This document shows, piece by piece, positions 9,030-58,869 of a stretch of DNA of 64,000 nucleotides; position 1 is the stretch's first letter, and each line of letters starts with the position of its first letter. Made by a program: the position numbers and the translations under genes. Below the pieces are notes generated by a model, which was given only the letters and a program-made list of their open reading frames with translations, was not told where the DNA came from and searched no databases. Source of the DNA: Elusimicrobiota bacterium (GTDB taxonomy: Bacteria > Elusimicrobiota > Elusimicrobia > UBA1565); contig JBDRPD010000039.1 of the NCBI GenBank assembly GCA_043827405.1, positions 103,830 through 167,829 on the forward strand. The letters run 5' to 3'.

Positions 9030-10055
9030 ATGAAAAGGATTCTGGTCGGCAAGCCGGGCGGACATGACGTGCTGGCGCTCGTTGAAGAGCCGGATCCGCG
9101 GCCCGGAGAAGGGCAGGCGCTCGTCAAAGTGCGCGCCGCGGGCGTCAACTACGCGGACTGCATGGTGCGGATGGGCTACTATGCGGCGGCCAAAGGTCTC
9201 TATCCCATCACCCCGGGCTTCGAGTTCGCCGGCACGGTCGAGAGTACGGGCGAGGGCGTAGCGGACTTCGCGCCGGGAGACCGGGTGTTCGGGATCACCC
9301 GTTTTGGCGGCTACGCGGACCGCATCGTCGCGGATGCGCGGCTGCTGTGGCGCTGCCCGGAGGAATGGGATTTCGCCGACTGTGCGGGCTTCCCCGCCGT
9401 TTTTCTGACGGCCTATTACGGGCTGTTCCGGGCGGCGCGGGTCGAGAAGGGGGAGAAGCTGCTGATCCATTCGGCGGCCGGCGGCGCGGGGGCCGCCTTC
9501 GTGCAGCTGGCCAATATTAAGGGCTGCCCTACCGTAGGCGTGGTCGGCGCCGCGCATAAAGCGGTTTACGCTCGCGATCTCGGCTGCGGCACCGTCATCA
9601 CGCGCGCCGAAGAGAACCTCTGGAAGGCGGCCCGGCGCGCGGCGCCGGACGGTTTTGCCGCGATTTTCGACGCCAACGGCGTCTCCACGCTGCGCCGGGG
9701 TTATGAGCATCTCGCTCCGGGCGGCCGCCTGGTCGCTTACGGCTTCGCCGAGATTATGCCGCGCGGCAAGGACGTCCCGGGACGGCTCGCTTTGGCCTGG
9801 AATTACCTGCGCGTGCCGAGCTTCTCACCGTTGGACATGACGATGAAGAACCGGGCGGTAGTAGGCTTTAATGTCGTCTACCTGTTCGCCGACGGCGCGC
9901 TGGTGCGCCGAGCGATGGCCGAACTTCTGGGCTGGGTCGCGGCGGGGAAAATCCGCAAGGCGCCGGTTACCTGCTTCCCTTTGCAGCGGGCGGCCGAGGC
10001 GCATGCGGCGCTGGAATCGGGAACGACGCAGGGCAAGCTGGTCCTTACGGCATAG
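9030..10055 (+). CDS. MDR-family NADPH:quinone oxidoreductase (VAT-1-like)
   Basis: VKVRAAGVNYAD, PGFEFAG, HSAAGGAG nucleotide-binding motif, C-terminal TQGKLVL. Confidence 0.9.
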   Translation: MKRILVGKPGGHDVLALVEEPDPRPGEGQALVKVRAAGVNYADCMVRMGYYAAAKGLYPITPGFEFAGTVESTGEGVADFAPGDRVFGITRFGGYADRIVADARLLWRCPEEWDFADCAGFPAVFLTAYYGLFRAARVEKGEKLLIHSAAGGAGAAFVQLANIKGCPTVGVVGAAHKAVYARDLGCGTVITRAEENLWKAARRAAPDGFAAIFDANGVSTLRRGYEHLAPGGRLVAYGFAEIMPRGKDVPGRLALAWNYLRVPSFSPLDMTMKNRAVVGFNVVYLFADGALVRRAMAELLGWVAAGKIRKAPVTCFPLQRAAEAHAALESGTTQGKLVLTA

Positions 10056-12201
10056 ACGGCGAGAAGACTCCCTCGGGAATTCCCCCGGCGACCAGCCACT
10101 TGCGGAAGATGCGGACATACTCGGCGTCGGTGCCCGCGCGCTTCATGTTCTTGCGGTAGCCGCCGATCGTCCAGCGTCCGTCGGACTCCAGCACCACGTA
10201 AAAGACCTGATCCGCGGAGCGGTTGTCCGGATCCCTGCCGGTCTTCGCGTCGCGCACGGCGTTGCCGTTGAAGTTTACGTAGGCGAAGGCTCCCGCACGC
10301 GATATTTCCTCAATGGACTTGCCCGAAGGGGTTAGGATGTCCTGCCCCATCTCCCGCAGGAAATCGCCCTGCGCGTTGTGCGGAAAGCCGGCGGTGAGCC
10401 GCTCGACGCGGTCGCGCTGCAGGATTTGGACCAGGATGCGCCGTGCGAGCTTCTCGTCGCGGTTGCTGCGCAGCAGGCGGTCGATCTCGGGATCCTTCGC
10501 GATGAGCTCCTGCACTCGCTGCGTTGTTACGGCCGCCTGCTGTCCGAGCTCCACGATCAAATCGGCGATATGCTGGTAGCTGGCTTCAACCTTCGCGCGC
10601 TCGCCGGATTTGGCCGTGGCTTCCTGCGGAAAGAAACGCGTCAGCAGCGCGCGTCCGAGTTCGGAATTCGGCTTGATGCCGCTTTCGTCACTGAGCCATA
10701 GGGTGAATAAGCCGCGGTGTTGTTTGGCGGAAGGCTTCATTCCGCCCATCAGGCTGCGTTCATAGGCCAGGAATCGTCCGGCCGCCTTTTTGAACGGATC
10801 GACGGCATCGGCGATGGACCGGCTCAGATTATCCTTGACCGGCGCCGGGGGCGCCCGGGCAAGGGACGGCGCTTGCAGGCCGGCGGCGCGGCGGAAATGG
10901 GCGTAAACATCCTGGAAGTTCGCCCGCAGATTAGGCGGCAGCAGGTTGAAGAACGGGTTCTCCAGCAGAGGCTTCAGGAAGCCGGACGTCCCCTTGCGGA
11001 CCATGTCGTCGGTGGGCGTAGCGGCTCGGGCCATGGTCCGGAACTCATGCGCCAGACCCTTTACCGCGCTGTCGGCAAAAGCCGCCGAATCCAAGTACAT
11101 TGCCGTCTGATCCGCGTAGGCCAAGAGCCGTCCCAATGTGGTCCACTTCGCGGCCAGCGCTTCCCCGAAATAAGTTTTGGCCATTTGTTCCGCGTCCTGT
11201 TGGATCTGCGCCATGGCCGCTTGGTCGGGATTGAAATCGGTAAACTTGATTAAGGCCTTAAGCTGGCCTCGTCCCCGGTCTCCCAGCCCCAGGTCCTTAA
11301 AGAGGGCGCGGGCGGCGGGATCGGTGTCGAGGTATTCGAGCGTCGCGGACACGCGGGCGGGGGTGCCGGGTGTTCGACGGGGATCCACGTCGTGCAGCGC
11401 CGCGGCTACGAGCAGTAGGGCCTTTTCCGCCCGGCTCAGCTTGCTCCCAGCCGGTCCGGCGAGGACGCCCGCCATGGTGTCCGCCACGCGTTTGGAGTGG
11501 AGCAGGCCGTGGTAGACCTTTTTTTGGTCGCCGGGATGCTGCGTCTTGAGAATGTCTGCAAGCTTCTGGATTTGCGCGTTGGGGACGCCGTTGTACGCCA
11601 AGGAGCGGATGAAATTATAACCGCTTGGACCCTGAAAGCCGTTTCTGCCCGCGCCGCCGGGCGCAACGGCGTCATCCTTGCCGCTGGCAGGAAGATTGCC
11701 GGAGCCGTCGAACAGCTTGGCGCTGATGCCCGCGCTTTGCTCGGCGCCGATTCCGCCCGCGCTTTCTCCGTCGGTCTTTCCCTGCAGCTTACCGCTGCCG
11801 TCCTGGAAGCCGCTGAGGGCCTTCTGGAATCCTTCACTGCCCAGCTTGGGCGCCGAGTTCGCGGGGCTTATTTCCTCGCCGCCGGCGGGCAGAGCTTTTC
11901 CCGGCGCGGCCTGCACGCGGATATCGCTCCCGCCGTTGACGGCCTTCTGTCCGGGCGGCAACGCCCGGAGGTTCGGGGTCTCAACCGACGGCAAGGTCTG
12001 GCCGTCAATGGTTGGGACCGTCAAGCCGCCGGGGCCGGTCAGTGATGTAAGCGGCGCGGTCAAGGACGCGCCCGCGGCTCCGACCCCGCCCATATTCGCC
12101 TGCGCAACAGGGACCTCAAGAACGATGCCTTGGGCGGCGGCAAGAAACGGCGCGGCGATGGGGAGAAGCAAGGCCAGGAGAGGAGGTAGTTTGTGTTTCA
12201 T
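10045..12201 (-). CDS. Signal-peptide protein with long leader and HD-superfamily hydrolase domain
   Basis: Signal peptide, low-complexity leader, then YHGLLHS...LLVAAALHDVD...LAYADQ (H, HD, D). Confidence 0.75.
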   Translation of the reverse strand: MKHKLPPLLALLLPIAAPFLAAAQGIVLEVPVAQANMGGVGAAGASLTAPLTSLTGPGGLTVPTIDGQTLPSVETPNLRALPPGQKAVNGGSDIRVQAAPGKALPAGGEEISPANSAPKLGSEGFQKALSGFQDGSGKLQGKTDGESAGGIGAEQSAGISAKLFDGSGNLPASGKDDAVAPGGAGRNGFQGPSGYNFIRSLAYNGVPNAQIQKLADILKTQHPGDQKKVYHGLLHSKRVADTMAGVLAGPAGSKLSRAEKALLLVAAALHDVDPRRTPGTPARVSATLEYLDTDPAARALFKDLGLGDRGRGQLKALIKFTDFNPDQAAMAQIQQDAEQMAKTYFGEALAAKWTTLGRLLAYADQTAMYLDSAAFADSAVKGLAHEFRTMARAATPTDDMVRKGTSGFLKPLLENPFFNLLPPNLRANFQDVYAHFRRAAGLQAPSLARAPPAPVKDNLSRSIADAVDPFKKAAGRFLAYERSLMGGMKPSAKQHRGLFTLWLSDESGIKPNSELGRALLTRFFPQEATAKSGERAKVEASYQHIADLIVELGQQAAVTTQRVQELIAKDPEIDRLLRSNRDEKLARRILVQILQRDRVERLTAGFPHNAQGDFLREMGQDILTPSGKSIEEISRAGAFAYVNFNGNAVRDAKTGRDPDNRSADQVFYVVLESDGRWTIGGYRKNMKRAGTDAEYVRIFRKWLVAGGIPEGVFSPSMP

Positions 12202-12368
12202 GACAAATCCTATGCGGTGCGTCTATCACTAGACGCACCGCGCCACCTCCGGGTAGTCCAAGTGTAGCTCCGGTTCCTATTTTCCGCAAGGGGCAGGAAA
12301 AAAGAGGCGGATTCGTGCCCGGGCAGGCGATATAAGGAGCCTCTAATTTGTATGATATATGCTGAGTA

Positions 12369-12397
12369 TTGACACCTATACTCGCTTCTGCTACAAC
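12369..12397 (+). promoter_or_regulatory. sigma70-type promoter of M23/bactofilin operon
   Basis: TTGACA-N17-TACAAC with extended TG. Confidence 0.65.
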
Positions 12398-19545: not shown

Positions 19546-21951
19546 TTAGTCGATGCTGCGCAGCCGCGCGGCGAACTCGCCGGGTGTGGCGATCCGCTTT
19601 TCTCGATCCATTTCGAGTGAGCGGGCGATCAGCGCGTCGAGGCGGGGATCGAGGCCGGCGACGACTTGGGTCGCGGGCCGGTAGCCGGTGCCCGCGCCCG
19701 GCTGCAAGCCGCTGTTCCCGAACGGCGGCTCCCCCGTCAGCATCTCGTAAAGGCAGGCTCCCAGGGCGAAGGTGTCGGTCGCCGGGGAGACTACGCCTTG
19801 GTAGGCTTCCGGCGGCATATAGGCTGGAGTTCCCGCCAGATGCTGGGTGTGGGCGACGCGCACTTCCTGGCGCGCCGGCTGCACGGCGGCGGGCATCGGC
19901 GTATCCGTACTTCCAAGGTTCCGGGCGATGCCGAAGTCCATTACTTTGACGTAGCCCCGGTCGCTGATCATGATATTGGAGGGCTTGAGGTCGCGGTGGA
20001 TGATCCCTTTTTCGTGGGCGTAGACTAAGGCGCCCGCGGTCGCCGCGAGGATCGGACGGGTGCGTTCCCAGCTTATTCGCTTGTGCTTGAGCAGCAGCTG
20101 CTGGAGCGTTTTGCCGGTTACATATTCCAAAACAAGGAAGACGCCGTCCGGGCGGTCGAAAATCTCAAAGATATTGACGATGTTGGGATGCCGGAGCTCC
20201 GCCATAATGCGGGCTTCCTTAACATAGAGCTGGCGCAGGCCGGTCTCGTCGGCGCTGAGGTTGGCGAGCGCCTGCTTGACCGCGACGTCGCGTTCGAGCG
20301 AGGTGTCGTAGGCGCGCCAGACCTTGCCCATCCCGCCGTGCCCGATGATGCCCTGCAGGCTGTACTTCCCGCCGAGCATGGAGCCCTCGACCGCGGGTTC
20401 CGGCACCGGCGCGGGCTGCTGGGCGGAGGCGGGTTTCGGTTCCGCGCGCCGGGGGCGAAAGCGCCGCAGCAGCGTAGCGAACAGCGGCATAAGGGCGGGC
20501 AGCGCGGCCGCCGTTAGGGCGATGAGGATCAGGGCGCCGCCCAAGGCGATCTTGGGACTGAGCTTGAACGGCGGCGTGTAGTCGATCTCGTCAAGCAGCG
20601 AGCGGCTGTCGGTCCGGTCCGGATTGAACAGCTCCTCCTCGTTAAGCGCTTTGAGGTAATGGTTCATATAGCGGTGGTCGATCTCCGCCGCCGCCTTTAA
20701 CGCCGCCAGCATCTCGTCGCGCATCCCGAGCTTCTCATAGGCGAAAGCGCGCATGAGCAGGGCTTGGGCGTCCCGGGGGTTGATATTGAGCAGCCGGTCC
20801 GTGGTTGCGATCACTCCTTCATAGTCCTTCATGTGCAGCTGCGCCCAGGCCAGGGTGCGCAGGGCATCGGCGTTATTGGGATCGATTTTCAGGCTCCTGA
20901 GCGCCGCTTCGGCCGCGCTTTGAAACTCCCGCTGGCGGCTGAGGATTTTAGCCTTGAGCTGATAGCCCATGGCGCTGTCGGGGTGCAGGCGGATGTACTC
21001 TTCGGCGTCGCGCAGGGCGCCTTTGAGATCGCCGCTGAGCAGCTTGTTCTCGCCGCTTCTGAGCAGGGGGAGATCATATACCGGCCGCACGTTTTGCTTG
21101 GCGTACGGCGATTTCAGGCGGCGATCCGGCGAAATTTCTACCTTCTTGCGGGACCGTCCCGGTTGTTCGCGCGGGGGCATTTTCTTGCGTTCGCGCAGCT
21201 TGTCGGTTCGCCGGGCCGGCGGTCGTGCCGCCGGGATCCGGCCGGTTAGAGGGCGCGCCGCGCCGCTCGTGTATGCGCCGGGAGTTCCGCCGCCGGTATT
21301 GGCGCCGATCGTCTTGAGGGCATTGGCCATCATATCGCGCGTCATGCCCTTGATCTGGTTGGTTTTGGCTTCGGCGTAGCCCGCGGCCTGCCCCTGCGAC
21401 ATGTTCGGATCGGAGAAAGCCTTCTGCATGTCGGTGACGGAGCGCATCATATCCTGGGTGGTCGCCGGGGCGTCGTCGTCGGACGCGCGGCGTTTTTTTC
21501 TTCCGCTTTCTACGGAATAGGCCTCACCGAGACGGCCGGTCCAATACTCCTGCTTGTCCGGGTAGACATAGTGGCCCAGCTCGTTCTTGTACGTCTCTTC
21601 CGCCTTAAGATAATCGCGGGCGCTCGTGTCGCTGTTCCTGCGGGCCTGCTCTTCCGCTTTGCGCGCATCTTCGTAGTGGCGCTGCTCGGTATTGGCTTTA
21701 TTCTGGAAATGGTCTTTGCGGAAGAGGGATATATTGGCGCGGTTGCGAAAGTCCCGCGTGTTCTCATAGTAGCCGTCGGTCAGCTCCCCGGCCCGCTTCT
21801 CCTCATTTTCATCCTGCTGCAGCTGCGTGCGGGCCTGCTCAACCTCGCTGCGCAGCGCCTGCTCCCGTTCTTCATATTCCGCGCGTACGGGGAGCTGCGC
21901 CAGCGCGCACAGAAAGAGCCCCAGGGAGGCCAGGATGGGCAAGCGTCTCAT
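19546..21951 (-). CDS. Receptor-like Ser/Thr protein kinase with extracytoplasmic coiled coil and TPRs
   Basis: Signal peptide, TPRs, one TM, Hanks kinase motifs GHGGMG, VAVK, HRDLKPSN, DFG, PPE. Confidence 0.93.
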   Translation of the reverse strand: MRRLPILASLGLFLCALAQLPVRAEYEEREQALRSEVEQARTQLQQDENEEKRAGELTDGYYENTRDFRNRANISLFRKDHFQNKANTEQRHYEDARKAEEQARRNSDTSARDYLKAEETYKNELGHYVYPDKQEYWTGRLGEAYSVESGRKKRRASDDDAPATTQDMMRSVTDMQKAFSDPNMSQGQAAGYAEAKTNQIKGMTRDMMANALKTIGANTGGGTPGAYTSGAARPLTGRIPAARPPARRTDKLRERKKMPPREQPGRSRKKVEISPDRRLKSPYAKQNVRPVYDLPLLRSGENKLLSGDLKGALRDAEEYIRLHPDSAMGYQLKAKILSRQREFQSAAEAALRSLKIDPNNADALRTLAWAQLHMKDYEGVIATTDRLLNINPRDAQALLMRAFAYEKLGMRDEMLAALKAAAEIDHRYMNHYLKALNEEELFNPDRTDSRSLLDEIDYTPPFKLSPKIALGGALILIALTAAALPALMPLFATLLRRFRPRRAEPKPASAQQPAPVPEPAVEGSMLGGKYSLQGIIGHGGMGKVWRAYDTSLERDVAVKQALANLSADETGLRQLYVKEARIMAELRHPNIVNIFEIFDRPDGVFLVLEYVTGKTLQQLLLKHKRISWERTRPILAATAGALVYAHEKGIIHRDLKPSNIMISDRGYVKVMDFGIARNLGSTDTPMPAAVQPARQEVRVAHTQHLAGTPAYMPPEAYQGVVSPATDTFALGACLYEMLTGEPPFGNSGLQPGAGTGYRPATQVVAGLDPRLDALIARSLEMDREKRIATPGEFAARLRSID

Positions 21952-24130: not shown

Positions 24131-25072
24131 ATGGTTAAGATCGTCAGCGGTTTGTTGGGCGCGCTTTTTCTTACGTCCTCGGCCTTCGCGCAGGTTAATC
24201 CCGATGTCATTTACGGCGACGACGACCGTTTGGACGTTTATCAGGTCCAAAGCGGAGTGCTTCGTGAACTGGCGGATTCTACAGTCGGTCTGATGAGCAG
24301 CGAAAAAATTACCATCGCAGGCGCTAAAGCCTCGATCCGGACGACGTCCTACAGCTCCAGCTACAGCTTGTGCGAGGATGAGCCATTCTATGAGCAGGAG
24401 ACGGCGGCGTTCTGCTCCGGCTCGCTGGTCGGCCCGGATCTGATCATGACGGCGGGGCACTGCATTACGTCGCAGTCCTCCTGCGAGGGCACGAAGTTTG
24501 TGTTCGGCTTCGCGGTGAAAGAGAAAGGCAAGAATCCCAAGAGCGTCCCGGCCGGTGATGTATACGGCTGCAAGAAGCTGCTGGGACGCACCCAGGAGAA
24601 CTCCGGCGCCGACTGGGCGATCATCAAGCTCGATCGCGCGGTGACGGGGCATAAGGTGCTCAAGCTCAACCGAACCGGCAGCTCGCCCAACGGCACGCCG
24701 CTGATCGTGATCGGGCACCCGGCGGGGCTGCCGACCAAGGTGGCCGGCGGCGCCTACGTGCGCAACCAGGGCTCAGCAGGACATTTCGTAGCCAACCTCG
24801 ACACCTACGGCGGCAATTCGGGCAGCGCGGTCTTTAACGCGGTGACCGGCAAGGTCGAGGGCATTCTGGTGCGCGGCGCCACGGATTATGTATGGCGCGG
24901 CAACTGCCGGGTCTCCAATGTCTGCACCGATGACGGCTGCCGGGGCGAGGACGTGACGCGGGTCTCGGCGGTTTACGACCTGGTTCCGGACAAGAGCCCG
25001 TTGGCCAAGTTCCGCATGGGCAAAGTTCCGGCGCTTAAGCAGCTGATGCAGCTCACCGGGGGCTCGCGCTAA
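24131..25072 (+). CDS. Secreted trypsin-like serine protease (paralog 1)
   Basis: Signal peptide, VIYGDDDR, TAGHC, DWA, GGNSGS catalytic triad motifs. Confidence 0.92.
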   Translation: MVKIVSGLLGALFLTSSAFAQVNPDVIYGDDDRLDVYQVQSGVLRELADSTVGLMSSEKITIAGAKASIRTTSYSSSYSLCEDEPFYEQETAAFCSGSLVGPDLIMTAGHCITSQSSCEGTKFVFGFAVKEKGKNPKSVPAGDVYGCKKLLGRTQENSGADWAIIKLDRAVTGHKVLKLNRTGSSPNGTPLIVIGHPAGLPTKVAGGAYVRNQGSAGHFVANLDTYGGNSGSAVFNAVTGKVEGILVRGATDYVWRGNCRVSNVCTDDGCRGEDVTRVSAVYDLVPDKSPLAKFRMGKVPALKQLMQLTGGSR

Positions 25073-25096
25073 GCGACGCGTTAACAGATCAACAAC

Positions 25097-25138
25097 GCGG
25101 CCGGGGCGATCACAGGGCGCCCCGGCCGCTTTCTTTTA
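25097..25138 (+). terminator. Intrinsic terminator
   Basis: 12-bp stem GCGGCCGGGGCG/CGCCCCGGCCGC followed by TTTCTTTT. Confidence 0.85.
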
Positions 25139-25256
25139 TGGTTCTTAGGGCCCAAAAAAATGCGGGACCAAGGGCCGCGAAAGGCTTGCATTCTCGCGGG
25201 AGCAATTGTTTAAATGCGTCAGGGATCGACGTACTACCATTCAGGGGGGGGAAGGC

Positions 25257-26204
25257 ATGGGGAAGTTTATAAGCTGTTTGCTGAGCTCTTTACTGCTGTC
25301 GTCCGCGGTGTTCGCGCAGGTTCGTCCGGACGTTATCTACGGCGATGATGACCGGCTGGACCTCTATCAGGTCCAGAGTCCCAAACTCCGGCGCATGGCC
25401 GATTCAACGATCGCGCTGATCTCCGGCGGCGACGTTACGATCGACGGAGCCGGCGGGATCGCCCGCCTTAATACCTCGTCCTATGCCGGTGACTACCAGC
25501 TCTGTCAGGAAGAGCCGTTTTACGAGCAGGAGACGGCGGCGTTCTGCTCGGGGTCGCTGGTCGGTCCGGATCTGCTGATGACCGCAGGGCACTGCGTGCG
25601 TTCACAGTCAGCCTGCGAATCCACGAAGTTCGTTTTCGGCTTCGCGGTGACCGAGAAAGGAAAGAATCCTAAGAGCGTGCCGGCCGCGGATGTCTACAGC
25701 TGCAAGCAGCTCCTTGGCCGCGAAGAGGTGGGAACCGGAGCTGATTGGGCGATCGTCAAGCTGGATCGCCCGGTGGCCGGACATGCGCCGCTGAAGCTCA
25801 ACCGCAGCGGCAGTATCCCGAATGGGACGCCCTTGATCGTAATCGGGCACCCCGCCGGACTGCCGACCAAGGTCGCCGGCGGCGCTTACGTGCGCAACCA
25901 GGGCTCGGACGGCCACTTCGTGGCCAACCTCGATACCTATGGCGGCAACTCCGGCAGCGCGGTATTCAACGCGGTAACCGGACAGGTCGAGGGCATTCTG
26001 GTGCGCGGCGAGCAGGACTACGTGTGGCGCAACGGCTGCCGGGTATCGAACGTCTGCGCCGACGACGGCTGCCGCGGCGAGGATGTGACCCGGGCCTCGG
26101 CGGTGCTCGGTCTGGTCCCCGGCGCGGGGCCGGCGGCGAATTTCCGCGTCGGCAAGGTCCCGTCATTTAAGCAGCTGCTGCAGCTGACCGGCGGCTCGCG
26201 CTAG
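25257..26204 (+). CDS. Secreted trypsin-like serine protease (paralog 2)
   Basis: Same motifs as paralog 1 with long identical stretches. Start MGKFIS after a purine-rich RBS. Confidence 0.92.
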   Translation: MGKFISCLLSSLLLSSAVFAQVRPDVIYGDDDRLDLYQVQSPKLRRMADSTIALISGGDVTIDGAGGIARLNTSSYAGDYQLCQEEPFYEQETAAFCSGSLVGPDLLMTAGHCVRSQSACESTKFVFGFAVTEKGKNPKSVPAADVYSCKQLLGREEVGTGADWAIVKLDRPVAGHAPLKLNRSGSIPNGTPLIVIGHPAGLPTKVAGGAYVRNQGSDGHFVANLDTYGGNSGSAVFNAVTGQVEGILVRGEQDYVWRNGCRVSNVCADDGCRGEDVTRASAVLGLVPGAGPAANFRVGKVPSFKQLLQLTGGSR

Positions 26205-26360: not shown

Positions 26361-28694
26361 TTACAGTCCGATATGCAGCGGCCCGTGCCCCGCCCGGTTG
26401 GGCAGGTGCTCATGGCCGTGCAGCGTCACATCGCTCGCGCTCAGCGTCTGCGCCGCGTCCGCCGCCGGCTTCGCCGCCGCCGGCGGCGCCGCCGGCTTGG
26501 ACCGCTCTCCCTTGCTGAACAGGAGCATCGGCGCGAACAGCTGGATCAGGCCGAGGACCGTGGTGGCGATGCCGGCGATCCAGAGGCTGGTCGAGATCGC
26601 GACGCCGTTAAGCACGAACCCGTAGAGCAGGGTCGCGGCGATGGCCGCGAGGATGCCGACGAAGGAGTTCGCCGCCAGGACCTGGTTCATCTGCAGGTCG
26701 TTGTAGCCGCGGATCTTTTTCTGGTAGATGCCCGTCATGACCATGCCCACGAAGCCGCCGAGGAAGGTCTGCAGGCCGTAGAGGGCGAGCAGGCCGACCA
26801 CCGAGCCGGTATTGATCATCCACCAGAAGGCCGGCACCGACAGGAAGGACAGGACGTAGAAGGGGATGGTCAGCCGCTCCTCGGTGGTGAACCCCAGCTT
26901 CATGAACAGCTTGCGCAGGGGGTTGATCATCAGGGAGGCGACCGCGCTGCCCAGGCTCGAAGAGGTGACCAGCAGGGCGAAAAATCCCATCGGCGTGCCG
27001 ACCAGCCCCTTGAAGAACCAGCCCAGGAGCGGGACATTGAGCAGCATGTCCAGCGCGCCCGGATTGGTCGCCAGGACGCCCTCGACGAACTCCGGCAGGA
27101 TGTTGAAGACCAGCGGATCAGCGAACAGCGAGGAGATCAGGCCGATGATCATCAGGGTCCGCAGGTAGCGGTTCTGCATGACCAGCTTGATTCCCTTGAC
27201 CATGGAGACGCCGGCGTTCTTGACCGCGCTCCACAGGCCGGTGATCTGTACGTTTTGTCCGCCCATGGTCTCTTCGCCGTCTTCGATCGCTTCCTGCGCC
27301 GGCTTTGAGCCGATCATGCGGATGGTGGCGAAGATGAGGCCGGCTATGCCGACGCCGGCCGCGTAGACTCCGTAGATGAGCGCGCTTCCGGTTCCGGCTT
27401 TGCCGAACCAGTCGGGGATGCCGGCGATCTGACCCGCGATGAAGGGTGCGATGATGGCGATAATAGCGCTCAGGAAGGTGCGCATCGAGTTGGCGCGCAG
27501 ACGCTCGGCGGGCAGGACCGATTTGTGTCCCATGAGGCGGGCCGTCGCGCCCGACATCATGATGACGTAGACGCCCTGGAAGAACGACTGGCCCGCGATG
27601 AGCCCCAGGAGCACCCAAATCGCCGCCTGCGCCGAGAGTAGGCCCGAGGCGAAGAAGATTGCCGGCACTCCGAAAAGGATTCCCATGCGCGCCAAAGCCG
27701 AACGCACCAGCCACTTTTTCGGACCGGCCTTGCCGTCTTTGGTAAACAGCGGGATGGCGATATAGCTTATCGCCTGCGCGGCCCAGTGCATGAAGCGGGC
27801 CATGCTGCGGTTTTCACGCACCAGGGCGTTGAGCGCCTCTGCCGTGGTGTCGCGCAGCTGGCCGTTTTCCTGCAGGGTATTCTTGGTGAACGACTTCATC
27901 AAGAACGGCAGCGCGACGATGTACATCTGGAAGCCGAAGAGATAGATGGCTTCACCCAGGAACATGCGCCAGAAAGCCTTGTTGCGTTCCTCTTCGCGGA
28001 AGATTTGGGTTTTACTGTTCAGCCACTTGCGGATGCCGCCTTTCTCGGCCTTGACGGGCGCTTTGGCCGGCGCTTCCTCGATTCCGGGGAGCGCGGCTTC
28101 CCGCAGTTTGGTGAGCTGCGAGCTTGCCTTAAGGCCGCCGCGCAGGGTGCCGGAAGGGGTCGCCTGGACCGCCCCGCTCTGCGTCGGCTGGGATAGGCGG
28201 CCGGTCAGCAGATCTATTTGCGTTCGGGCGCCGGTATAGGCATCCGCCGTACCCGCATGCGCGAGACCCTTTACGCTCTGCGCCACCGCCCGCGATACGC
28301 CGAGCACTTTCCGGGTAAAGGGAGTCTTCAGCTTGGGGGCGCTCGCGGAGTTCGCGGTGAGCTTGTCAACGGGATAATAGTGCAGGGAGGATACGGCCTT
28401 GTTAACGGGAACGACTTCGGGGACTATTGTTCCGTTATAAGAGACCGCATGCGAGAGCGCGGGGATGCTTACCGAAGCGACGGATTCGGGAAGCGCCAGC
28501 GATGTCTTAAGCGACGGAGTAAACGAGGGATTGAGCGTGGTCTGGACGCCGACGGAGTGGAAGGCGGCGCCGGCGGCGGCCGCACCGGTGCCGACTTGAG
28601 CCGTCGGCTGGACGCGGATCATGACGTTTGCGGCGTGCAGAATTCCCGGCTCTAACGCGAGAAGAAGGCTGATCGCGGCGGCTATGAATCTCAT
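26361..28694 (-). CDS. MFS-type transporter with signal peptide and about 235-aa N-terminal extension
   Basis: About 12 TM segments after residue 235, ERLRANS and IIAPFIAG MFS-like segments. Confidence 0.75.
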   Translation of the reverse strand: MRFIAAAISLLLALEPGILHAANVMIRVQPTAQVGTGAAAAGAAFHSVGVQTTLNPSFTPSLKTSLALPESVASVSIPALSHAVSYNGTIVPEVVPVNKAVSSLHYYPVDKLTANSASAPKLKTPFTRKVLGVSRAVAQSVKGLAHAGTADAYTGARTQIDLLTGRLSQPTQSGAVQATPSGTLRGGLKASSQLTKLREAALPGIEEAPAKAPVKAEKGGIRKWLNSKTQIFREEERNKAFWRMFLGEAIYLFGFQMYIVALPFLMKSFTKNTLQENGQLRDTTAEALNALVRENRSMARFMHWAAQAISYIAIPLFTKDGKAGPKKWLVRSALARMGILFGVPAIFFASGLLSAQAAIWVLLGLIAGQSFFQGVYVIMMSGATARLMGHKSVLPAERLRANSMRTFLSAIIAIIAPFIAGQIAGIPDWFGKAGTGSALIYGVYAAGVGIAGLIFATIRMIGSKPAQEAIEDGEETMGGQNVQITGLWSAVKNAGVSMVKGIKLVMQNRYLRTLMIIGLISSLFADPLVFNILPEFVEGVLATNPGALDMLLNVPLLGWFFKGLVGTPMGFFALLVTSSSLGSAVASLMINPLRKLFMKLGFTTEERLTIPFYVLSFLSVPAFWWMINTGSVVGLLALYGLQTFLGGFVGMVMTGIYQKKIRGYNDLQMNQVLAANSFVGILAAIAATLLYGFVLNGVAISTSLWIAGIATTVLGLIQLFAPMLLFSKGERSKPAAPPAAAKPAADAAQTLSASDVTLHGHEHLPNRAGHGPLHIGL

Positions 28695-46080: not shown

Positions 46081-46133
46081 ATTGTTCCAATGCAAACAAT
46101 TGATTAGACATGCAAGGGTGCGGCGGGTACACT
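46081..46133 (+). promoter_or_regulatory. Promoter of 2-oxoacid dehydrogenase operon with upstream dyad
   Basis: TAGACA-N17-TACACT (46105-46133) preceded by ATTGTT-N8-AACAAT. Confidence 0.5.
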
Positions 46134-46145
46134 GATAGGGTACCT

Positions 46146-47273
46146 ATGCCTATAGAAACTGTCGCGCAGACGAAAACCGAGCGCATCAAGATCCTGGATG
46201 TCGATGGCCGCGTCGACCGGACGCTATCGGCCGGTATGGACGCCAAGATGATGCGGACGATCTATGAGAAGATGGTCCAGCTGCGCGTATTCGATGAGCG
46301 CGCCTTCAAGCTGCAGCGGCAGGGCCGGTTGGGGACCTATCCGCAAATCCTCGGGCAGGAGGCTACCCAGATCGTCCCCGCGCTGTGTTTGCGGGACAAG
46401 GATTGGCTGGTTCCGACCTATCGCGGGCATGGCGCCTACTTCGCGCGAGGCGTAAGGCTGATGGAGAGCCTGCTGTACTGGGGCGGTGACCACCGTTTCG
46501 GACGTTCCATGGCCGGGACCTGCAACTTCGATTTCGCGGTGCCGGTGGGCTCGCATATGACGCAGGCCGCCGGTCTCGCCTGGGCGCAGCAGCTGAGAAA
46601 ATCCGGCGACGTGGTCCTGTGCTATTCGGGCGACGGCGGGTCCTCGAAGGGGGATTTCCATGAGGCCCTGACTTTTGCCGGAGTGCGGAAGCTGCCGCTG
46701 GTCGTGCTTATTGAAAATAATCAGTATGCGATATCCACCCCGCGTGCCGCCCAGTGCGGAGCGCCGACCTTGGCGCAGAAGGCCCACGGCTACGGCATTC
46801 ACGGCGTGCAGGCGGACGGCAATGATCCCTTGGCCGTCTACCGGACCGTCAACGAGGCCGTTGCGCGCGGCCGTCAGGGCGGCGGGGCGAGCGTCGTCGA
46901 ATGCGTCACCTATCGCATGGGCCACCATACGACGGCCGATGACGCCAACCGCTATCGCAGTAAAGAAGAGACGGAGAGTTGGCGGAAAAAAGACCCTATC
47001 GAACGTCTGCGCAAGTACCTCGGGGCGGAGGGCCTCCTGACGCCGGCGGACGACGAGAGGATTAGCCGAGAGGCGGAGCTTATGGTGCAGGCCGAGGTTA
47101 AGGCCTACGAGGAATTCGGGCCGCCCAATCCGCTCGACATGTTCGCGCACAATTACGCGCAGGCGCCGTGGCATCTGATCGAACAGCGGACGGAGCTGGA
47201 GAACCTTCTCGAGGATAAACGCTACCGCAACGAGATCGAGGAACTGCCGGCCGCCGAAGGCCGGTTTCCGTAA
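46146..47273 (+). CDS. pdhA: Pyruvate/branched-chain 2-oxoacid dehydrogenase E1 alpha
   Basis: LQRQGR, GQEA, TPP motif GDG...NNQYAIS, YRMGHHTTADD. Substrate specificity not resolvable. Confidence 0.9.
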   Translation: MPIETVAQTKTERIKILDVDGRVDRTLSAGMDAKMMRTIYEKMVQLRVFDERAFKLQRQGRLGTYPQILGQEATQIVPALCLRDKDWLVPTYRGHGAYFARGVRLMESLLYWGGDHRFGRSMAGTCNFDFAVPVGSHMTQAAGLAWAQQLRKSGDVVLCYSGDGGSSKGDFHEALTFAGVRKLPLVVLIENNQYAISTPRAAQCGAPTLAQKAHGYGIHGVQADGNDPLAVYRTVNEAVARGRQGGGASVVECVTYRMGHHTTADDANRYRSKEETESWRKKDPIERLRKYLGAEGLLTPADDERISREAELMVQAEVKAYEEFGPPNPLDMFAHNYAQAPWHLIEQRTELENLLEDKRYRNEIEELPAAEGRFP

Positions 47274-47284
47274 GCGGGGGGACT

Positions 47285-48283
47285 ATGGCCCAGATGAATT
47301 TACTGCAGGGAATCAACGCCGGTCTCCGACTGGCGATGGAAGACGATGACAGGGTCGTGGTCTTCGGCGAGGACGTGGGCAAAAACGGCGGCGTGTTTCG
47401 CGTGACCGACGGCTTGCAGCAAACCTTCGGTGCGGAGCGTGTCGTCGACACTCCTTTGGCCGAGCTGGGGATCGTCGGAGCCGCGGTCGGTCTGGCCGCG
47501 GCCGGCTACCGGCCGGTATGCGAGATTCAGTTCAGCGGTTTTCTGCCGTCGGTGATGGATCAGGTGATGTGCCACCTCGGCCGGATGCGCAACCGGACCC
47601 AGGGGCGGACCACGCTGCCGCTGGTGATCCGGGCGCCTATGGGCGGTCTGATTCACGCGCCGGAGCACCACTCCGAGAGCCTGGAAGCCCATTTTACCCA
47701 TACGCCCGGCATCAAGGTCGTGATGCCGTCGACTCCCGAAGACGCGAAGGGCCTGATGCTGGCCGCGATCAGGGATCCCGATCCCGTCATCTATTTTGAG
47801 CCGAAGCGCCTTTATCGATCCGCTCTGGGCGAGGTCCCGGCTGGGCGTCGAGAGACGCCGATCGGCAAAGCGCGCATCGCGCGCGAAGGCGGCGATATTA
47901 CGCTTATCACCTGGGGCGCCATGGTGCATACCTGCATGAAGGCCGCCATTGAGTTGGGCCAAGGCGGCATTTCCGCCGAAGTGCTGGATCTGCGCACTCT
48001 CACGCCCCTCGATCTGGACGCGGTCCTGGCCTCGGTGAGAAAGACCGGGCATGCCCTTATCGCCCACGAAGCGCCCAATACCGGCTCCTGGGCGGCGGAG
48101 ATCAGTTCGCTTATCCATGAGCGGGCTTTCCGCGACCTGAAGGCGCCGGTAAGCCGGATCGGTTCCTGGGACATCCGCCAGCCGCTGTTCCGGCTGGAGA
48201 AGCACTATATCCCCGACGTGCACCGGATCGCGAAAGGGGCGCGGCGAACGATCGGCGCCCTGCGCTCTGGCGCCAGCGTATGA
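47285..48283 (+). CDS. pdhB: Pyruvate/branched-chain 2-oxoacid dehydrogenase E1 beta
   Basis: GEDVGKNGGVFRVT, DTPLAE, EIQF, EHHSES, DLRTLTPLD. Confidence 0.9.
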   Translation: MAQMNLLQGINAGLRLAMEDDDRVVVFGEDVGKNGGVFRVTDGLQQTFGAERVVDTPLAELGIVGAAVGLAAAGYRPVCEIQFSGFLPSVMDQVMCHLGRMRNRTQGRTTLPLVIRAPMGGLIHAPEHHSESLEAHFTHTPGIKVVMPSTPEDAKGLMLAAIRDPDPVIYFEPKRLYRSALGEVPAGRRETPIGKARIAREGGDITLITWGAMVHTCMKAAIELGQGGISAEVLDLRTLTPLDLDAVLASVRKTGHALIAHEAPNTGSWAAEISSLIHERAFRDLKAPVSRIGSWDIRQPLFRLEKHYIPDVHRIAKGARRTIGALRSGASV

Positions 48284-48326
48284 TAGTTGATATGCTCACC
48301 CGGCAGCCGGCAAGCAAGGAGCGTCT

Positions 48327-48566
48327 ATGGTATTTGAATTCAAGCTGCCCGATCTGGGCGAGGGTCTCATCGAGGCGGAGGTCGTCAAATGGCTGGTGAA
48401 GGAGGGCGACCCGGTGCAGGAGGATCAAAACCTGGCCGAGATCCTGACCGACAAGGCCATGATCGAGCTGCCGTCTCCGAAGGCGGGCAAGATCGTCAAG
48501 CTGCATGCGCCGGAGGGGGCGAAAGTCAAAGTGGGCGAGATCCTTTTGGCGATCGAGGAGAGCTGA
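48327..48566 (+). CDS. Stand-alone lipoyl domain
   Basis: FKLPDLGEGL, TDKA lipoyl-lysine motif, AAGGAG RBS, TGA directly after the domain. Confidence 0.88.
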   Translation: MVFEFKLPDLGEGLIEAEVVKWLVKEGDPVQEDQNLAEILTDKAMIELPSPKAGKIVKLHAPEGAKVKVGEILLAIEES

Positions 48567-49258
48567 ACCTCGAGGAGCGAGTCCCCTACCGCCTGATCCG
48601 GCGCCGCACGGGCGAGAAGATGGTCGAGTCGATGCGCAGGATTCCGCATGTAAGCCATTGCGAGGAAGCCGACGTTACGGAGCTTGCCGCGCTGCGCGAA
48701 GAGCTTAAGCCCGCGGCCGAGAAGCGCGGCCGCAAGCTGACCTTTCTGCCCTTCATCGCCAAGGCGCTGGTCACGGCGCTCAAAGAGTTCCCGTCTTTAA
48801 ACGCGGTCCTCGACGAAGAGAAGCAGGAAATCGTCCTGAAAAAATACTACAACCTCGGCGTCGCCGTGGCGGCGGAGCAGGGGCTTATCGTCCCCGTGGT
48901 CAAAAACGCGGAGCGCAAGGACCTCTGGGAGCTGGGCGGTGAGATCGCCGAGCTGGCCGGCCAGGTACGGGCCAATCGCATCAAGCTTCAAGATATCCAG
49001 GGCGGGACGTTTACCATCACCAATATCGGCCCCATCGGCGGGCTCTATGCCACGCCGATCATTCTGCATCCCCAAACCGGCATCCTCGCGCTGATGAAGA
49101 TGCGCGAGGAGCCCAAGGTCCGCGGCGGCGAGATCGTCATCCGCAAAGTGATGAACCTGGTGCTGTCATTCGACCACCGCGTCCTTGACGGCGCCGAGGC
49201 GGCGCGCTTTATGGCGCGCCTCGTCGACCTCATCGAAGCTCCCCGTCAGTTGCTATAA
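48563..49258 (+). CDS. E2 acyltransferase catalytic domain only (start uncertain: CTG 48563 or ATG 48620)
   Basis: KLTFLPF, GTFTITNIG, catalytic DHRVLDG. In the -1 frame relative to the lipoyl ORF. Confidence 0.8.
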   Translation: MNLEERVPYRLIRRRTGEKMVESMRRIPHVSHCEEADVTELAALREELKPAAEKRGRKLTFLPFIAKALVTALKEFPSLNAVLDEEKQEIVLKKYYNLGVAVAAEQGLIVPVVKNAERKDLWELGGEIAELAGQVRANRIKLQDIQGGTFTITNIGPIGGLYATPIILHPQTGILALMKMREEPKVRGGEIVIRKVMNLVLSFDHRVLDGAEAARFMARLVDLIEAPRQLL

Positions 49259-50272: not shown

Positions 50273-51181
50273 ATGAGGCTGCATTCGGTCGTGCTCGGTT
50301 TGGCGCTCCTGCTGGGCGCGGCGCCGGGCGAAGCCCTGGTCAAGATCAAGCTGGCGCCGGCGTCGCTGTCTTCGGTGCAGGGGATCGGACAGCTGGGCGT
50401 CTTGCCGGGCGCCGGCGGCTCGATCCTGTCGGCGCCGCTGCTGCGGCAGAACCTCAAGTTCGATTCGTTTTTGCCGAACGTCCTGCCGCAGGTCAAGGCC
50501 CCGGGAATCTCGGCGCCGGTCAAGACGCAGCGGACGGCCAAAGAAGCGCTTACCGTCCTTAGCGCCAAGGATTCCAAGCGTACCGAGAGCGCCAAATTCT
50601 CGGCCGTCTTTGACGGCGTCGCGCCGCCGGTCAAGCTGGCCATCGTCGGCCCGCCGGGATCGGGGAAATCCACCCAGGCGAAGCTGCTGGCCAAGGACCT
50701 GGGCGTCGTGCATATCTCCGCCGGACAGCTGCTGCGCGAGCATGCGCGGAACCATCCCGCGGTGGCGCAGCGCATGAACGCGGGAAAACTTGTGGATACC
50801 GATTTGGTCATGGGCGTCGTCCGTGAACGGCTGTCGCGGCCCGACGTCCAGCGCCGCGGCTTCATCCTCGACGGATTTCCGCGGCGCCTGGTGGAAGAGG
50901 AGGCGCTGACGGAGATGCTGGGCCGGGAGGGCGCGATCGACGCCATGATCCGCCTGGACGTGCCGGAAGCCGAGCTCCTGCGCCGCATCCAGGCGCGGGG
51001 CCGCGCCGACGACAGCGCAGAGGTCTTTCGCGAACGGATGAAGGTCTACCACGAGCAGACCGAGCCCGCGATCGAGAAGCTCGGCCGCAGCGCGTCCGTC
51101 ATCAGGCCGCGCGACGCCGCGGGCAAGGTGGAAGCGATCTACCGCGATATTCTGTCCGCGGTGCGCGGCCTCTTTAACTGA
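50273..51181 (+). CDS. Adenylate kinase domain (short LID) fused to signal peptide and leader
   Basis: P-loop GPPGSGKST, HISAGQLLR, GKLV, FILDGFPR, RGRADD after a roughly 118-aa N-terminal extension. Confidence 0.88.
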   Translation: MRLHSVVLGLALLLGAAPGEALVKIKLAPASLSSVQGIGQLGVLPGAGGSILSAPLLRQNLKFDSFLPNVLPQVKAPGISAPVKTQRTAKEALTVLSAKDSKRTESAKFSAVFDGVAPPVKLAIVGPPGSGKSTQAKLLAKDLGVVHISAGQLLREHARNHPAVAQRMNAGKLVDTDLVMGVVRERLSRPDVQRRGFILDGFPRRLVEEEALTEMLGREGAIDAMIRLDVPEAELLRRIQARGRADDSAEVFRERMKVYHEQTEPAIEKLGRSASVIRPRDAAGKVEAIYRDILSAVRGLFN

Positions 51182-56852: not shown

Positions 56853-56862
56853 CTAAGCGCCG

Positions 56863-57336
56863 CTACTTGGCCCAGTTCTCGGTCGCATTGTGGCGGGTCA
56901 GTCCGGCGGCGTCCCATTCATCATCGAAGGAGCCCGGCTTGAGGCCGAGGATGCGCAGCACCTTGTTGACCGGGCGGGTGTCGTTGCTTTCGCGCGGATC
57001 CCAGGGGGTGTCCTCGATCGAGGGCTCCAGCGTCATCTTGTTCTGCGACCAGAACGCGCTCGCCTGGTGGTCGCGGCCCTTGAGATAGTGCGCCTCGATA
57101 TAGGCGATGGCGCCGGCGCGCGAGCATTCCTGGGCCAGCTGCGCGAGTTTCTCGGACAGGTCGAGGCCCGCGAAGGCCGGCTCGTCGGAGCCGGTGATGT
57201 CGGCCTTGACCGCCGCGGTCACCGGCAGGAGGCATAGGTCGGCGGCAAGATCGACCACCTTGGCCGACGGCAGCTTAAGGGCCATATGCTCGAGCTGGGC
57301 CCGCTCCGCGACAAAGGCTTCAAGATGATGTGCCAT
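56863..57336 (-). CDS. Hypothetical protein
   Basis: 157-aa globular-looking ORF with its own extended -10 element. Confidence 0.7.
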   Translation of the reverse strand: MAHHLEAFVAERAQLEHMALKLPSAKVVDLAADLCLLPVTAAVKADITGSDEPAFAGLDLSEKLAQLAQECSRAGAIAYIEAHYLKGRDHQASAFWSQNKMTLEPSIEDTPWDPRESNDTRPVNKVLRILGLKPGSFDDEWDAAGLTRHNATENWAK

Positions 57337-57483
57337 TCGCGGAATTATGGCATGAAAATATGAAAAATGCCAGGGGGACCCAAGAACCTATATGACAGTA
57401 GGTCCAAAATCCGCCGCCTAGCTGCCCTTTTGCTCCATACGGCTGATGCCGCCTCGTTATATCATGGAGGCCGAGGTATAACC

Positions 57484-58869
57484 ATGATGCGCAAACATAC
57501 CGCGTTATTGCGAGCAGCACTATCTTTATCTCTCTCCGTATTGCCGGCCGCTCAGGCGTCGGCGCGGGTCATCTCAGCTCCGGTCGCCGCTTCCGGCGCG
57601 GCCTCCGCTGTCGGGGCGGCCGGCGCGGCGCTACAGGCTGTGCGCACATCTCAGGCCGGCATGCCGCTATTTACGCCCGTGCTGCCCTCCAACCTCACGC
57701 TCATGCCGTCCTTTCGGATTGATTCGGCGCCCTCAGTGACGGTGGACCACTCGCTTAAGGTGATGCCGATGGTCGCCGCGCCGAATCTTTCCGCAGTCAT
57801 TAACAAGCAGGCCGAAGCAAAGGGCGTTCAGGGGACCATAAATACTTTGCGCGAGACCGTCGCCGTGAAATCGCCGGGAATGAAGTCCGGCGGCAAAGTC
57901 GGACTGCGGCTCAACAGGCTCTTCGACGGCTTGGGCCAGCGCCGCCAGGGGCAGGACGGAGCCGTGCCTGCCGTGACGGGCCGCTACCTCAGGCATGCGT
58001 CCGGGCTCAGCAAGGCGGCAGCGAAAGCGACTCAGCAGGTCGAGGTCGCGGTGCCCGCCGCGGTCAAGCCGGCTTCTTCTCACGGCTTGAAGATCGCCGC
58101 CGCGGTTCTCGCCGCGGCGCTGCTCTTCGCGGCCCCCACGATCGCTTTGGCGGCCGGCGCGCCGACTGCGGTCGCCGCTTCGCTTGCCTACCTGACTGCG
58201 TATCAGCCGGTAATCACCGCGGCCGCCGCGGCCGCGGGCGTCGTTTACGGGCTGATCGCCTCACGCGGCAAGGACGGCGAGGCAATGAGTGGAGCCCAGG
58301 TTCTGGGCCAGGTTTTGCGCTTCGGCCTGCTGGCCGGCGCCGGGGCGTACGTCCTCATGGATGTCACGCAGGTCCTCTTCCTCGGCCTTAAGACCGTCGG
58401 GATCACCGCTCTTCCTGCCGCTTTGGCTACCGCGGCTCTTGGCCAGGGCGCATTCCAGGGCAAGTTCCAGGACCCGAAGACCTCGTCGGCGGACCGGATC
58501 ATGGCGGTATTCCCGGCCGTGGCCGCGGCGCTGGGACTCAGCATCGGGGTGCAGATAGCGGCCGTGCCGCAGCTGCTGGCGCTGGCGGTCGACGCCATGG
58601 CCGTTACCGGCGTCGCCTCGGCGCTCTTCGCCGCGCTGTATCAGCCGGTCAAGTCGCCGGAAAAAGGCCCGGCGAAGATGGCTCGGGGCTACGTGCTGCA
58701 GGCCCTCATGAGCGGCCTCGCTCTCGCGGTGACGAACCCGTACTACATGTACACGTTCGCGGCCCTGGCGGCCTGGGGATTTTACGACGTGATCTCCAGC
58801 GTGGCGCTCGAAGTTGAAGCGCACCTGCCGGAGTCGCTGCGGCGGCTGTGGCGCGGCAAGAAAAGCTGA
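57484..58869 (+). CDS. Multi-TM membrane protein with signal peptide and long leader
   Basis: Signal peptide, VGAAGA...LFDG leader, about 8 hydrophobic segments. GAGGT RBS before MMRKH. Confidence 0.8.
   Translation: MMRKHTALLRAALSLSLSVLPAAQASARVISAPVAASGAASAVGAAGAALQAVRTSQAGMPLFTPVLPSNLTLMPSFRIDSAPSVTVDHSLKVMPMVAAPNLSAVINKQAEAKGVQGTINTLRETVAVKSPGMKSGGKVGLRLNRLFDGLGQRRQGQDGAVPAVTGRYLRHASGLSKAAAKATQQVEVAVPAAVKPASSHGLKIAAAVLAAALLFAAPTIALAAGAPTAVAASLAYLTAYQPVITAAAAAAGVVYGLIASRGKDGEAMSGAQVLGQVLRFGLLAGAGAYVLMDVTQVLFLGLKTVGITALPAALATAALGQGAFQGKFQDPKTSSADRIMAVFPAVAAALGLSIGVQIAAVPQLLALAVDAMAVTGVASALFAALYQPVKSPEKGPAKMARGYVLQALMSGLALAVTNPYYMYTFAALAAWGFYDVISSVALEVEAHLPESLRRLWRGKKS

Follow-up and report, generated by a model that had tools for sequence, protein, structure and literature searches.

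The 64,000-nucleotide stretch of DNA analysed here, henceforth the window, spans G000:C39:103830-167829, that is, part of contig C39 of the source genome (G000, 98% complete), which belongs to an uncultured groundwater bacterium of the Elusimicrobiota. Four of its genes, which encode an HD-domain protein, an MFS-type transporter, an adenylate kinase and a membrane protein, begin with a common N-terminal leader: a signal peptide is followed by a tract of 50-70 residues, free of acidic residues and rich in Ala, Gly, Pro, Ser and Val, with LP(S/T) near its end and often an FDG motif thereafter. The same leader was detected on 59 genes of the genome, and we consider its existence practically certain. 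It probably does more than a plain Sec signal. The explanation that we favor, at a little under an even chance, is that the leader addresses its cargo to a dedicated export machine for delivery into the cytoplasm and inner membrane of prey or host cells.

A leader shared by 59 genes

The gene set examined comprised 3341 genes of the source genome, predicted with our own codon-model caller. Signal peptides were recognized with a simple hydrophobicity rule of our own instead of SignalP, and 1095 genes were flagged as signal-peptide-like. The four window genes served as seeds for an iterative model of residues 19-100, which gathered 59 genes that are set apart by a score gap (from 18.5 to 12.9 bits), and about 8 further genes resemble the members by eye. 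In five-fold cross-validation at 10 bits or more, 50 of the 59 held-out leaders were recovered, compared with 1 of 177 shuffled sequences that kept the signal peptide, and with 1-3 of the 3282 other genes per fold. An independent model, made from the leaders of 39 MFS and adenylate kinase homologues of other genomes, recovered 35 of the 59 against 8 of the 3282 remaining genes. The dozens of hits with diverse cargo that a preliminary description of the window had predicted do therefore exist.

Leader genes are dispersed, and only 11 of 64 have another leader gene within two genes. In one pair of neighbors whose cargo is unrelated, the leaders are identical at 54% of 110 residues and at 74% of 224 bases, which indicates that the leader gets copied onto new genes; the portability proposed earlier can thus be seen at the DNA level.

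The signal-peptide rule (basic n-region, hydrophobic h-region) is passed by 56 of the 59 leaders. A small-x-small cleavage site, loosely defined, is found in 59/59, versus 864/1039 other signal-peptide proteins, while a lipobox and a twin-arginine motif occur in one leader each. PG or QG precedes the cleavage site in 34/59 leaders and in 113/1039 other signal-peptide proteins. Two acidic residues (D/E) at most are present in residues 31-80 of 57/59 leaders, against 108/749 other signal-peptide proteins, and the motif LP(S/T/A/G/N/V)(L/V/I/M) appears in 43/59 against 39/1039, both features being partly selected for by the leader model. The acid-free tract is not a membrane helix: on a Hessa-type scale, none of the 59 leaders has a second membrane-grade segment (at or below 3) in residues 31-100, and the best 19-mer scores +8.1 in the median and +3.7 at minimum.

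The preliminary description saw the defining core of the leader in two motifs, GAAGA and FDG. Both are enriched. GAAGA at residues 26-60 is found in 12 of the 1095 signal-peptide-like proteins and in 2 of 2246 without such a start. FDG at residues 81-260, outside the modelled region, is found in 21/59 leaders and in 28/727 other signal-peptide proteins (200 shuffles: mean 1.1, maximum 4), and also in 5 of 27 leader hits of at least 260 amino acids (aa) from other genomes (shuffled mean 0.5, maximum 4). The core status of these motifs did not hold, as both are optional and no converging profile was obtained; in some leaders FDG is replaced by variants such as LTGE, and among 55 N-extended adenylate kinase homologues 29 have (F/W)D(G/N/S) and many lack GAAGA. 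The signal peptide, the acid-free tract and the LP motif are the steadier features. When the FDG region was treated as a profile, the ungapped version collapsed from 30 seeds to 6 and the flanks did not converge. A gapped model from 32 leaders of other genomes separated modestly (at 10 bits, 29/59 core leaders versus 88/590 shuffles). FDG is therefore a short motif and not a domain, and it probably marks the end of the leader for processing or docking.

The possibility that the true start codons lie downstream of the leaders is contradicted by the homologues. By eye, the signal peptide is kept in 18/19 MFS homologues, the remaining one being a partial record that lacks the N-terminus; the signal-peptide rule is passed by 44 of the 55 adenylate kinase homologues; and the signal peptide is also kept in 8/9 homologues of the membrane protein. 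GC3 is 0.77 in the leaders and 0.84 in the cargo. A word resembling a ribosome-binding site precedes 15/59 leader genes versus 1148/3282 others, which does not speak for these starts. A search of 61 leaders with NCBIfam returned 13 families, each in 1/61 (best E 0.0046), none of which covers the leader. In a tree of adenylate kinases, which is not decisive, the smallest clade containing all 61 leader sequences has 81 tips (support 0.75) and also takes in fragments, ordinary kinases and one housekeeping copy.

Cargo

Cargo was surveyed by Pfam scan of 60 leader genes outside the window (55 core genes plus 5 added by eye, the largest split in two halves), and no Pfam family was matched by 24 of them. 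The assigned cargo can be summarized as follows:

(i). Cytoplasm-type proteins are two Clp-type ATPases, a LonB-type protease, an RNB nuclease, PPK2, a glycogen synthase, a uridine kinase with cytidine deaminase and an ATP-grasp protein; further enzymes are two alpha-amylases.

(ii). Transporters and channel-type proteins include six MFS transporters, an ABC exporter, a dicarboxylate symporter and MscS.

(iii). Degradative and other proteins include M50, M48, Rce1, S8, S41, M28, phospholipase D, endonuclease I and an exo/endonuclease; Fic, a nucleotidyltransferase, HD domains and a VWA giant complete the set. Database hits to the leader add MoxR ATPase, rhomboid and Sel1/TPR proteins.

Adenylate kinases, HD hydrolases and MFS carriers normally lack cleavable signal peptides, and plain Sec export would leave ATP- and ADP-glucose-dependent enzymes without substrate. 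No membrane helix is predicted after the signal peptide in adenylate kinase, PPK2, one Clp, Lon, RNB and glycogen synthase. As had been predicted, leaderless housekeeping paralogues exist for most of the housekeeping cargo types: adenylate kinase (2), PPK2, Clp, RNB, glycogen synthase, uridine kinase, cytidine deaminase, amylase and HD-GYP. None was found in the source genome for Lon, MscS, Fic and the MFS protein of the window. Active-site patterns are present in adenylate kinase, Clp, glycogen synthase, M50 and M48; our own patterns were unmatched in PPK2, RNB and Fic, although PPK2 passes TIGR03709.

The orientation of the window's MFS family was examined in 20 aligned sequences; the helices were numbered manually, helix 2 being assigned by eye and one peak in a loop being disregarded. 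Alternate loops hold 3.2-7.1 lysines or arginines and the short outer loops 0-1.3, with 4.2 just before helix 1, so that a positive-inside pattern alternates over twelve helices; between the signal peptide and helix 1 there is no hydrophobic segment (maximum 0.78). The leader side of these transporters is thus predicted to be the cytoplasmic side, and plain Sec export of the leader would invert the transporter.

Two leader-bearing enzymes are fused to a small multi-helix membrane domain: an amylase (L040, G000:C1:48955-52743) and a uridine kinase with cytidine deaminase (L044, G000:C53:148158-151445). Such enzyme-plus-exporter pairs fit a feeding role. At G000:C91:14847-26885, a leader-bearing VWA/BatA/DUF58 giant lies beside a leader gene that resembles the MoxR-type hit P0054, and a whole chaperone system seems to carry the leader.

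Distribution of the leader and a candidate machine

Searched with the 61-leader alignment (E 1e-4), the leader is present in at least 89 of 100 other genomes of the order, all order-wide leader counts being lower bounds. In a sample of 150 genomes of the phylum, the leader was found in 5/6 genomes of the order, 2/2 of a family designated f8 and 0/142 others. A search of 1.84 billion representative sequences gave 61 hits; among the 30 looked up, all 9 organism-named clusters are Elusimicrobiota, with strain names of GTDB order UBA1565.

A syntenic locus on contig C22 of the source genome shows a similar distribution. It harbors the largest leader gene, which encodes a giant protein, and an ATPase of the SF2 superfamily that has a signal peptide. 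Homologues of the giant occur in 83 of the 100 order genomes and, within the phylum sample, in 6/6 order genomes and 0/144 outside. The ATPase occurs in 81 of the 100 and, in the phylum sample, coincides with the leader in all seven leader-bearing genomes, with one additional weak hit elsewhere; the genome G014, which lacks the leader, likewise lacks the ATPase. Eleven of 22 ATPase hits are organism-named, all of them Elusimicrobiota. ATPase and giant share one locus in 6/8 relatives examined. Both are missing in 8 order genomes, of which 4 are leader-negative (Fisher p 0.005, a value inflated by kinship and incompleteness, with G170 counted as giant-positive). The co-occurring secretion locus predicted earlier has therefore a counterpart that is secretion-like and matches in distribution; it is located outside the window.

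The ATPase carries a single family-conserved hydrophobic segment near residue 733, followed by SF2 motifs. According to a motif table, motifs I-VI come in SecA order and include the segment that closes the preprotein-binding domain. When compared with the ATPase profile, the genome's own SecA (a single SecA_DEAD gene was found) comes out on top both among 10 and among 19 ATPases of the genome, with 180 collinear columns. A phmmer search with this SecA did not find the ATPase, and an hmmsearch with the ATPase profile did not find SecA. A strict signal-peptide pattern, present in 8/59 leaders, has the ATPase as its sole hit among the 1039 other signal-peptide proteins.

In the giant, hydrophobic segments are found as far as residue 1235 and again at 5400; its composition is helix-type, and a strand-rich stretch lies at 2600-3000. 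Its likeness to TolC was suggested by Atlas (0.95) and by Pfam OEP matches in 2/29 orthologues (best E 6.8e-8). It also matches a gene of the source genome that we named TolC-like by eye (E 1.5e-4), and it contains a weak internal repeat (E 2e-4). A sequence search of PDB with the giant gave no match. We consider it slightly more likely than not that the C22 locus is the leader's machine.

Additional genes of the locus deserve mention. Between ATPase and giant lies G000:C22:50879-51781, kept at 53-68% identity in 6/8 relatives' loci; we take it to resemble REP-associated tyrosine (Y1) transposases, and it is possibly a domesticated transposase-like gene. Upstream of the ATPase (G000:C22:61136-73127), several Gly-rich membrane proteins follow one another. 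Their N-termini are basic, three are also syntenic in relatives, and they are possible further machine parts. The four that were scanned matched no Pfam family. Look-alikes are found at C1:47371, C1:74874, C60:3018 and C108:66644-81264, the latter adjoining a gene that is TadE-like by eye.

Weighing the explanations

Our proposal for the mechanism is as follows. The ATPase would be a motor derived from SecA and anchored in the inner membrane of the producing cell, which would grip the signal peptide together with the unfolded acid-free tract. The giant would form the conduit, and cargo would pass without folding in the periplasm. Inside the target, proteases, nucleases and glucan hydrolases may degrade the contents, delivered kinases may turn over nucleotides, and delivered transporters may enter the membrane the normal way round and let products leak back. 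We lean slightly towards another cell as the destination. The idea that the leader is a second-step targeting signal to another compartment or cell, put forward in the preliminary description, is partly supported by its spread, its behavior as a portable tag and the secretion-like locus; delivery itself is what we infer. A broader speculation, which we hold tentatively, is that this order of free-living Elusimicrobiota consists of unrecognized predators or parasites with a new secretion system, which use a SecA-derived motor and a giant single-chain conduit to inject about 60 tagged proteins and rebuild the target as a feeding chamber.

Several observations weigh against delivery by the C22 locus into another cell. 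Some of the cargo proteins (subtilases, endonuclease I, S41, M28, amylases) are of kinds that function well extracellularly. The likeness of the ATPase to SecA is statistically weak (probability 20-33%, E 4.5e-4 to 0.044); its Pfam matches are ResIII, DEAD and Helicase_C, not SecA_DEAD, and its sequence matched no solved structure in PDB. The recognition score of the giant for TolC is below its bar (1998), and 27 of the 29 orthologues have no OEP match. As regards distribution, 7 of 11 leader-negative order genomes retain giant and/or ATPase, and both genes are missing from 4 leader-positive genomes that are 70-88% complete. In family f8 the leader matches lie mainly within the signal peptide. 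Two small-genome families (46 and 44 genomes) dominate the outside sample. The co-occurrence of leader, ATPase and giant may come from shared ancestry. In addition, the literature searched mentions no prey or host for this lineage.

An alternative that we regard as unlikely is that the leader directs proteins to a compartment within the organism's own cell that contains ATP (an energized periplasm, an internal membrane compartment or a vesicle), either through the same machine or through Sec. The upkeep character of part of the cargo (ATP regeneration, quality control by Clp and Lon, an MscS domain, glycogen synthase) suits such a compartment, second copies beside the housekeeping ones are as appropriate for it as for a second cell, and the MFS topology is compatible too. 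However, nucleases, Fic, the nucleotidyltransferase and many proteases seem better suited to attack, and the TolC-like regions and strand-rich stretch of the giant point through the outer membrane. Cargo sets are also patchy between genera, unlike organelle upkeep: the membrane domain of the window's membrane protein, for instance, is found in 37 of the 100 other genomes of the order.

Quite unlikely, in our opinion, is an ordinary Sec signal peptide followed by a disordered spacer, with periplasmic or surface cargo and no second step. The start of the leader does resemble a standard cleavable signal peptide, conservation behind it is low (21% mean column identity in the 61-leader alignment), the tract is very short in some adenylate kinase homologues, and some of the cargo would be expected in a periplasm anyway. 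Against this stand the enzymes that would be deprived of ATP or ADP-glucose and the MFS carriers that would be inverted; an ordered motif set on unrelated genes and the match with the ATPase locus would also go unexplained.

An improbable explanation is a two-step route, by Sec and then by a type IV filament machine (Tad, type IV pilus or type II), to another cell or the medium, the ATPase-giant locus being unrelated. The source genome is unusually rich in type IV filament motors, with 22 T2SSE-family matches (20 over cut-off), three secretins over cut-off and six Omp85 matches, and a Tad-like locus lies near one leader gene. But the Tad marker RcpC is found in 126/151 genomes of the phylum, nearly all of them leaderless, and twelve-helix transporters would have to cross the periplasm. 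Markers of other routes were also sought in the source genome: type III FHIPEP (PF00771) and the type VI sheath protein VipB (PF05943) gave 0 matches each, and the type IV marker is patchy, with one VirB10/TrbI copy beside an integrase-like gene and presence in 5/30 relatives. The integrase-like gene and VirB-type cluster at G000:C8:46397-55518 probably form an integrative conjugative element.

Least probable is that the leader serves as a cytoplasmic tether, which would keep ATP enzymes and MFS orientation normal, but positive charges before the hydrophobic stretch favor an N-in, C-out arrangement, 0/59 leaders offer a second membrane-grade segment in residues 31-100, and multi-helix transporters need no extra anchor.

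Relationship to known systems

The proposed delivery system is best read as related to the giant SecA-bearing proteins of Omnitrophota. In the two papers that describe them (10.1101/2023.11.21.568195; 10.64898/2026.06.07.730766), these giants are reported to combine divergent SecA, pyruvate phosphate dikinase, GGDEF and starch synthase domains in a puzzling topology, and cell-wall attack, surface enzymes or anchoring in the own membrane are favored as roles. The word 'TolC' is absent from both main texts. The Elusimicrobiota system is similar in joining a signal peptide or membrane helices, cytoplasm-type enzymes and a putative divergent SecA beside a normal one. It is different in that the cargo is encoded by about 60 scattered genes that all carry leaders of their own, and in that the ATPase is a separate gene, has no SecA_DEAD model match and adjoins a TolC-like giant. 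Family f8 shares the build described for Omnitrophota: its ATPase is compact and fused into giants of more than 4000 aa. In one of these, pyruvate phosphate dikinase is combined with a signal peptide like that of the leaders. A different f8 giant with such a signal peptide contains GGDEF, matches SecA_DEAD weakly (E 0.005) and has MFS domains, to which four leader-bearing proteins of the source genome are homologous. On the tentative speculation of predation presented above, the Omnitrophota giants would represent the same strategy in fused form.

A genome of another class contains a giant of more than 4000 aa that matches the ATPase weakly (L165, G091:C16:30001-47151). It adjoins a gene with a phosphoribosyltransferase-like domain, the N-terminus of which we take to be like that of the Omnitrophota giants.

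In other phyla, PMC4452313 describes a secondary SecA_DEAD locus with HlyD, M50, GAF and sometimes OEP proteins. The C22 locus resembles it in having a candidate SecA-type ATPase as proposed motor and a putative TolC-like channel, with no ABC pump. It differs in that no HlyD, GAF or M50 match was found in the ATPase and 4/5 upstream genes (all but C22:71808-73127), in that the ATPase is 2400-3100 aa long with a signal peptide and an insertion, and in that TolC-like regions are fused in a protein of 4000-5600 aa and cargo has hydrophobic signal peptides.

In the bipartite host-targeting signals of eukaryotic parasites (PEXEL/PTEX, RxLR-dEER) and in plastid transit peptides, unrelated cargo proteins carry a signal peptide and, behind it, an unfolded segment that is poor in acidic residues or has a short motif; an ATPase threads such cargo across a further membrane. 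The resemblance is by description: the present leader is bacterial, its motifs differ and its destination is inferred. SecA2/SecY2, YSIRK, the C-terminal domain of the type IX secretion system and the signals of type III, IV and VI systems each link a portable tag to one dedicated machine. Unlike the type IX domain, the leader is an N-terminal tag, and inspection of 59 leader-protein tails by eye revealed no shared C-terminus.

Leader-bearing genes and other features of the window

As stated in the preliminary description, the four open reading frames (ORFs) share one layout, and all translations and motifs were found at the residues given (Table 1). In the HD protein, IVLEVP is at residue 26, VGAAGA at 40, KLFDG at 162 (L163) and DDAV at 176. 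The MFS protein has VMIRVQP at 24, AAAAGA at 38, DLLTG at 161 (L162) and SGAV at 173; the family consensus at the DLLTG position is QFxxLTGE. The adenylate kinase has VKIKLAP at 23, GIGQLG at 37 and AVFDG at 111 (V112). The membrane protein has VISAP at 29, VGAAGA at 43, RLFDG at 145 (L146) and DGAV at 158.

The HD-CE match of the HD protein reaches 27.1 bits in the Pfam scan, against a cut-off of 27, and a paralogue is located at G000:C66:44946-46976. The MFS protein alone matches MFS_1 with E 0.065, and PF07690 is carried by 9 of its 19 homologues; the 7 homologues that are organism-named are all Elusimicrobiota, and a related-locus search with this protein gave no matches. The adenylate kinase domain (PF00406, E 6e-35) begins at residue 124. 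The membrane protein matches no Pfam or NCBIfam family, and Atlas gave no lead. A scan of the 44 other ORFs of the window detected 0 secretion genes, all being ordinary or unassigned.

Table 1. Leader-bearing genes of the window and features of the candidate locus. Coordinates with two dots are positions in the window.
Feature	Location	Strand	Remarks
HD-domain protein with leader, 718 aa	10045..12201	-	HD-CE at residues 231-431
Its leader, residues 1-180	11662..12201	-	39.1 bits in leader model
Parts of this leader	signal peptide ~12130-12201; VGAAGA 12067-12084; FDG 11704-11712	-	
MFS-type transporter with leader, 777 aa	26361..28694	-	12 helices
Its leader core, residues 1-177	28164..28694	-	
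Parts of this leader	signal peptide ~28629-28694; AAAAGA 28566-28583; DLLTG 28200-28214	-	
Adenylate kinase with leader, 302 aa	50273..51181	+	P-loop and GFPR motifs intact; enzyme from ~50630
Its leader, residues 1-119	50273..50629	+	18.5 bits, weakest core member
Parts of this leader	signal peptide ~50273-50335; GIGQLG 50381-50398; AVFDG 50603-50617	+	
Membrane protein with leader, family-less, 461 aa	57484..58869	+	ORF has a further upstream ATG at 57367
Its leader core, residues 1-161	57484..57966	+	35.0 bits in leader model
Parts of this leader	signal peptide ~57484-57564; VGAAGA 57610-57627; RLFDG 57916-57930	+	
Syntenic candidate locus	G000:C22:34432-73127		
Giant protein, leader-bearing, 5435 aa	G000:C22:34432-50739		largest leader gene
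SF2 ATPase, 3018 aa, signal peptide	G000:C22:51959-61015		upstream of giant

Other genes of the window are worth recording. A gene at 19546-21951 encodes a signal peptide, TPR and a Ser/Thr kinase, and belongs to an expanded family with about 10 similar genes in the genome. A tandem pair of similar secreted trypsin-like proteases is found at 24131-26204. The region 46110-49258 encodes E1 alpha, E1 beta and E2 of a 2-oxoacid dehydrogenase; E2 has 289 aa, and its sole Pfam match is the catalytic domain, with no match to a lipoyl domain. At 59185-61422 there is a peroxidase of catalase-peroxidase size with a signal-peptide-like start and no leader.

Significance

One genome of the UBA1565 order has been described as that of a diderm aerobic heterotroph with seven amino-acid auxotrophies, obtained from a non-axenic amoeba culture (PMC9476967). 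The main text of a survey of Elusimicrobia (10.1101/765248) contains none of the words 'secret', 'signal peptide', 'predat', 'pili' and 'symbio'. Neither the leader nor the locus is described in the literature searched, subscription journals and all supplements lying outside its scope.

If our proposal is correct, a widespread uncultured lineage would possess a new route of bacterial protein delivery with a tag that can be read from sequence, and transporters and housekeeping enzymes would serve as delivered cargo. The puzzle of the Omnitrophota giants, in which cytoplasmic enzymes stand behind signal peptides and a stray SecA is present, would become approachable through small single genes such as that of the adenylate kinase of 302 aa. 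Should the idea of delivery into another cell prove wrong, the presence of signal peptides on ATP-dependent enzymes would still imply a compartment that calls for explanation.

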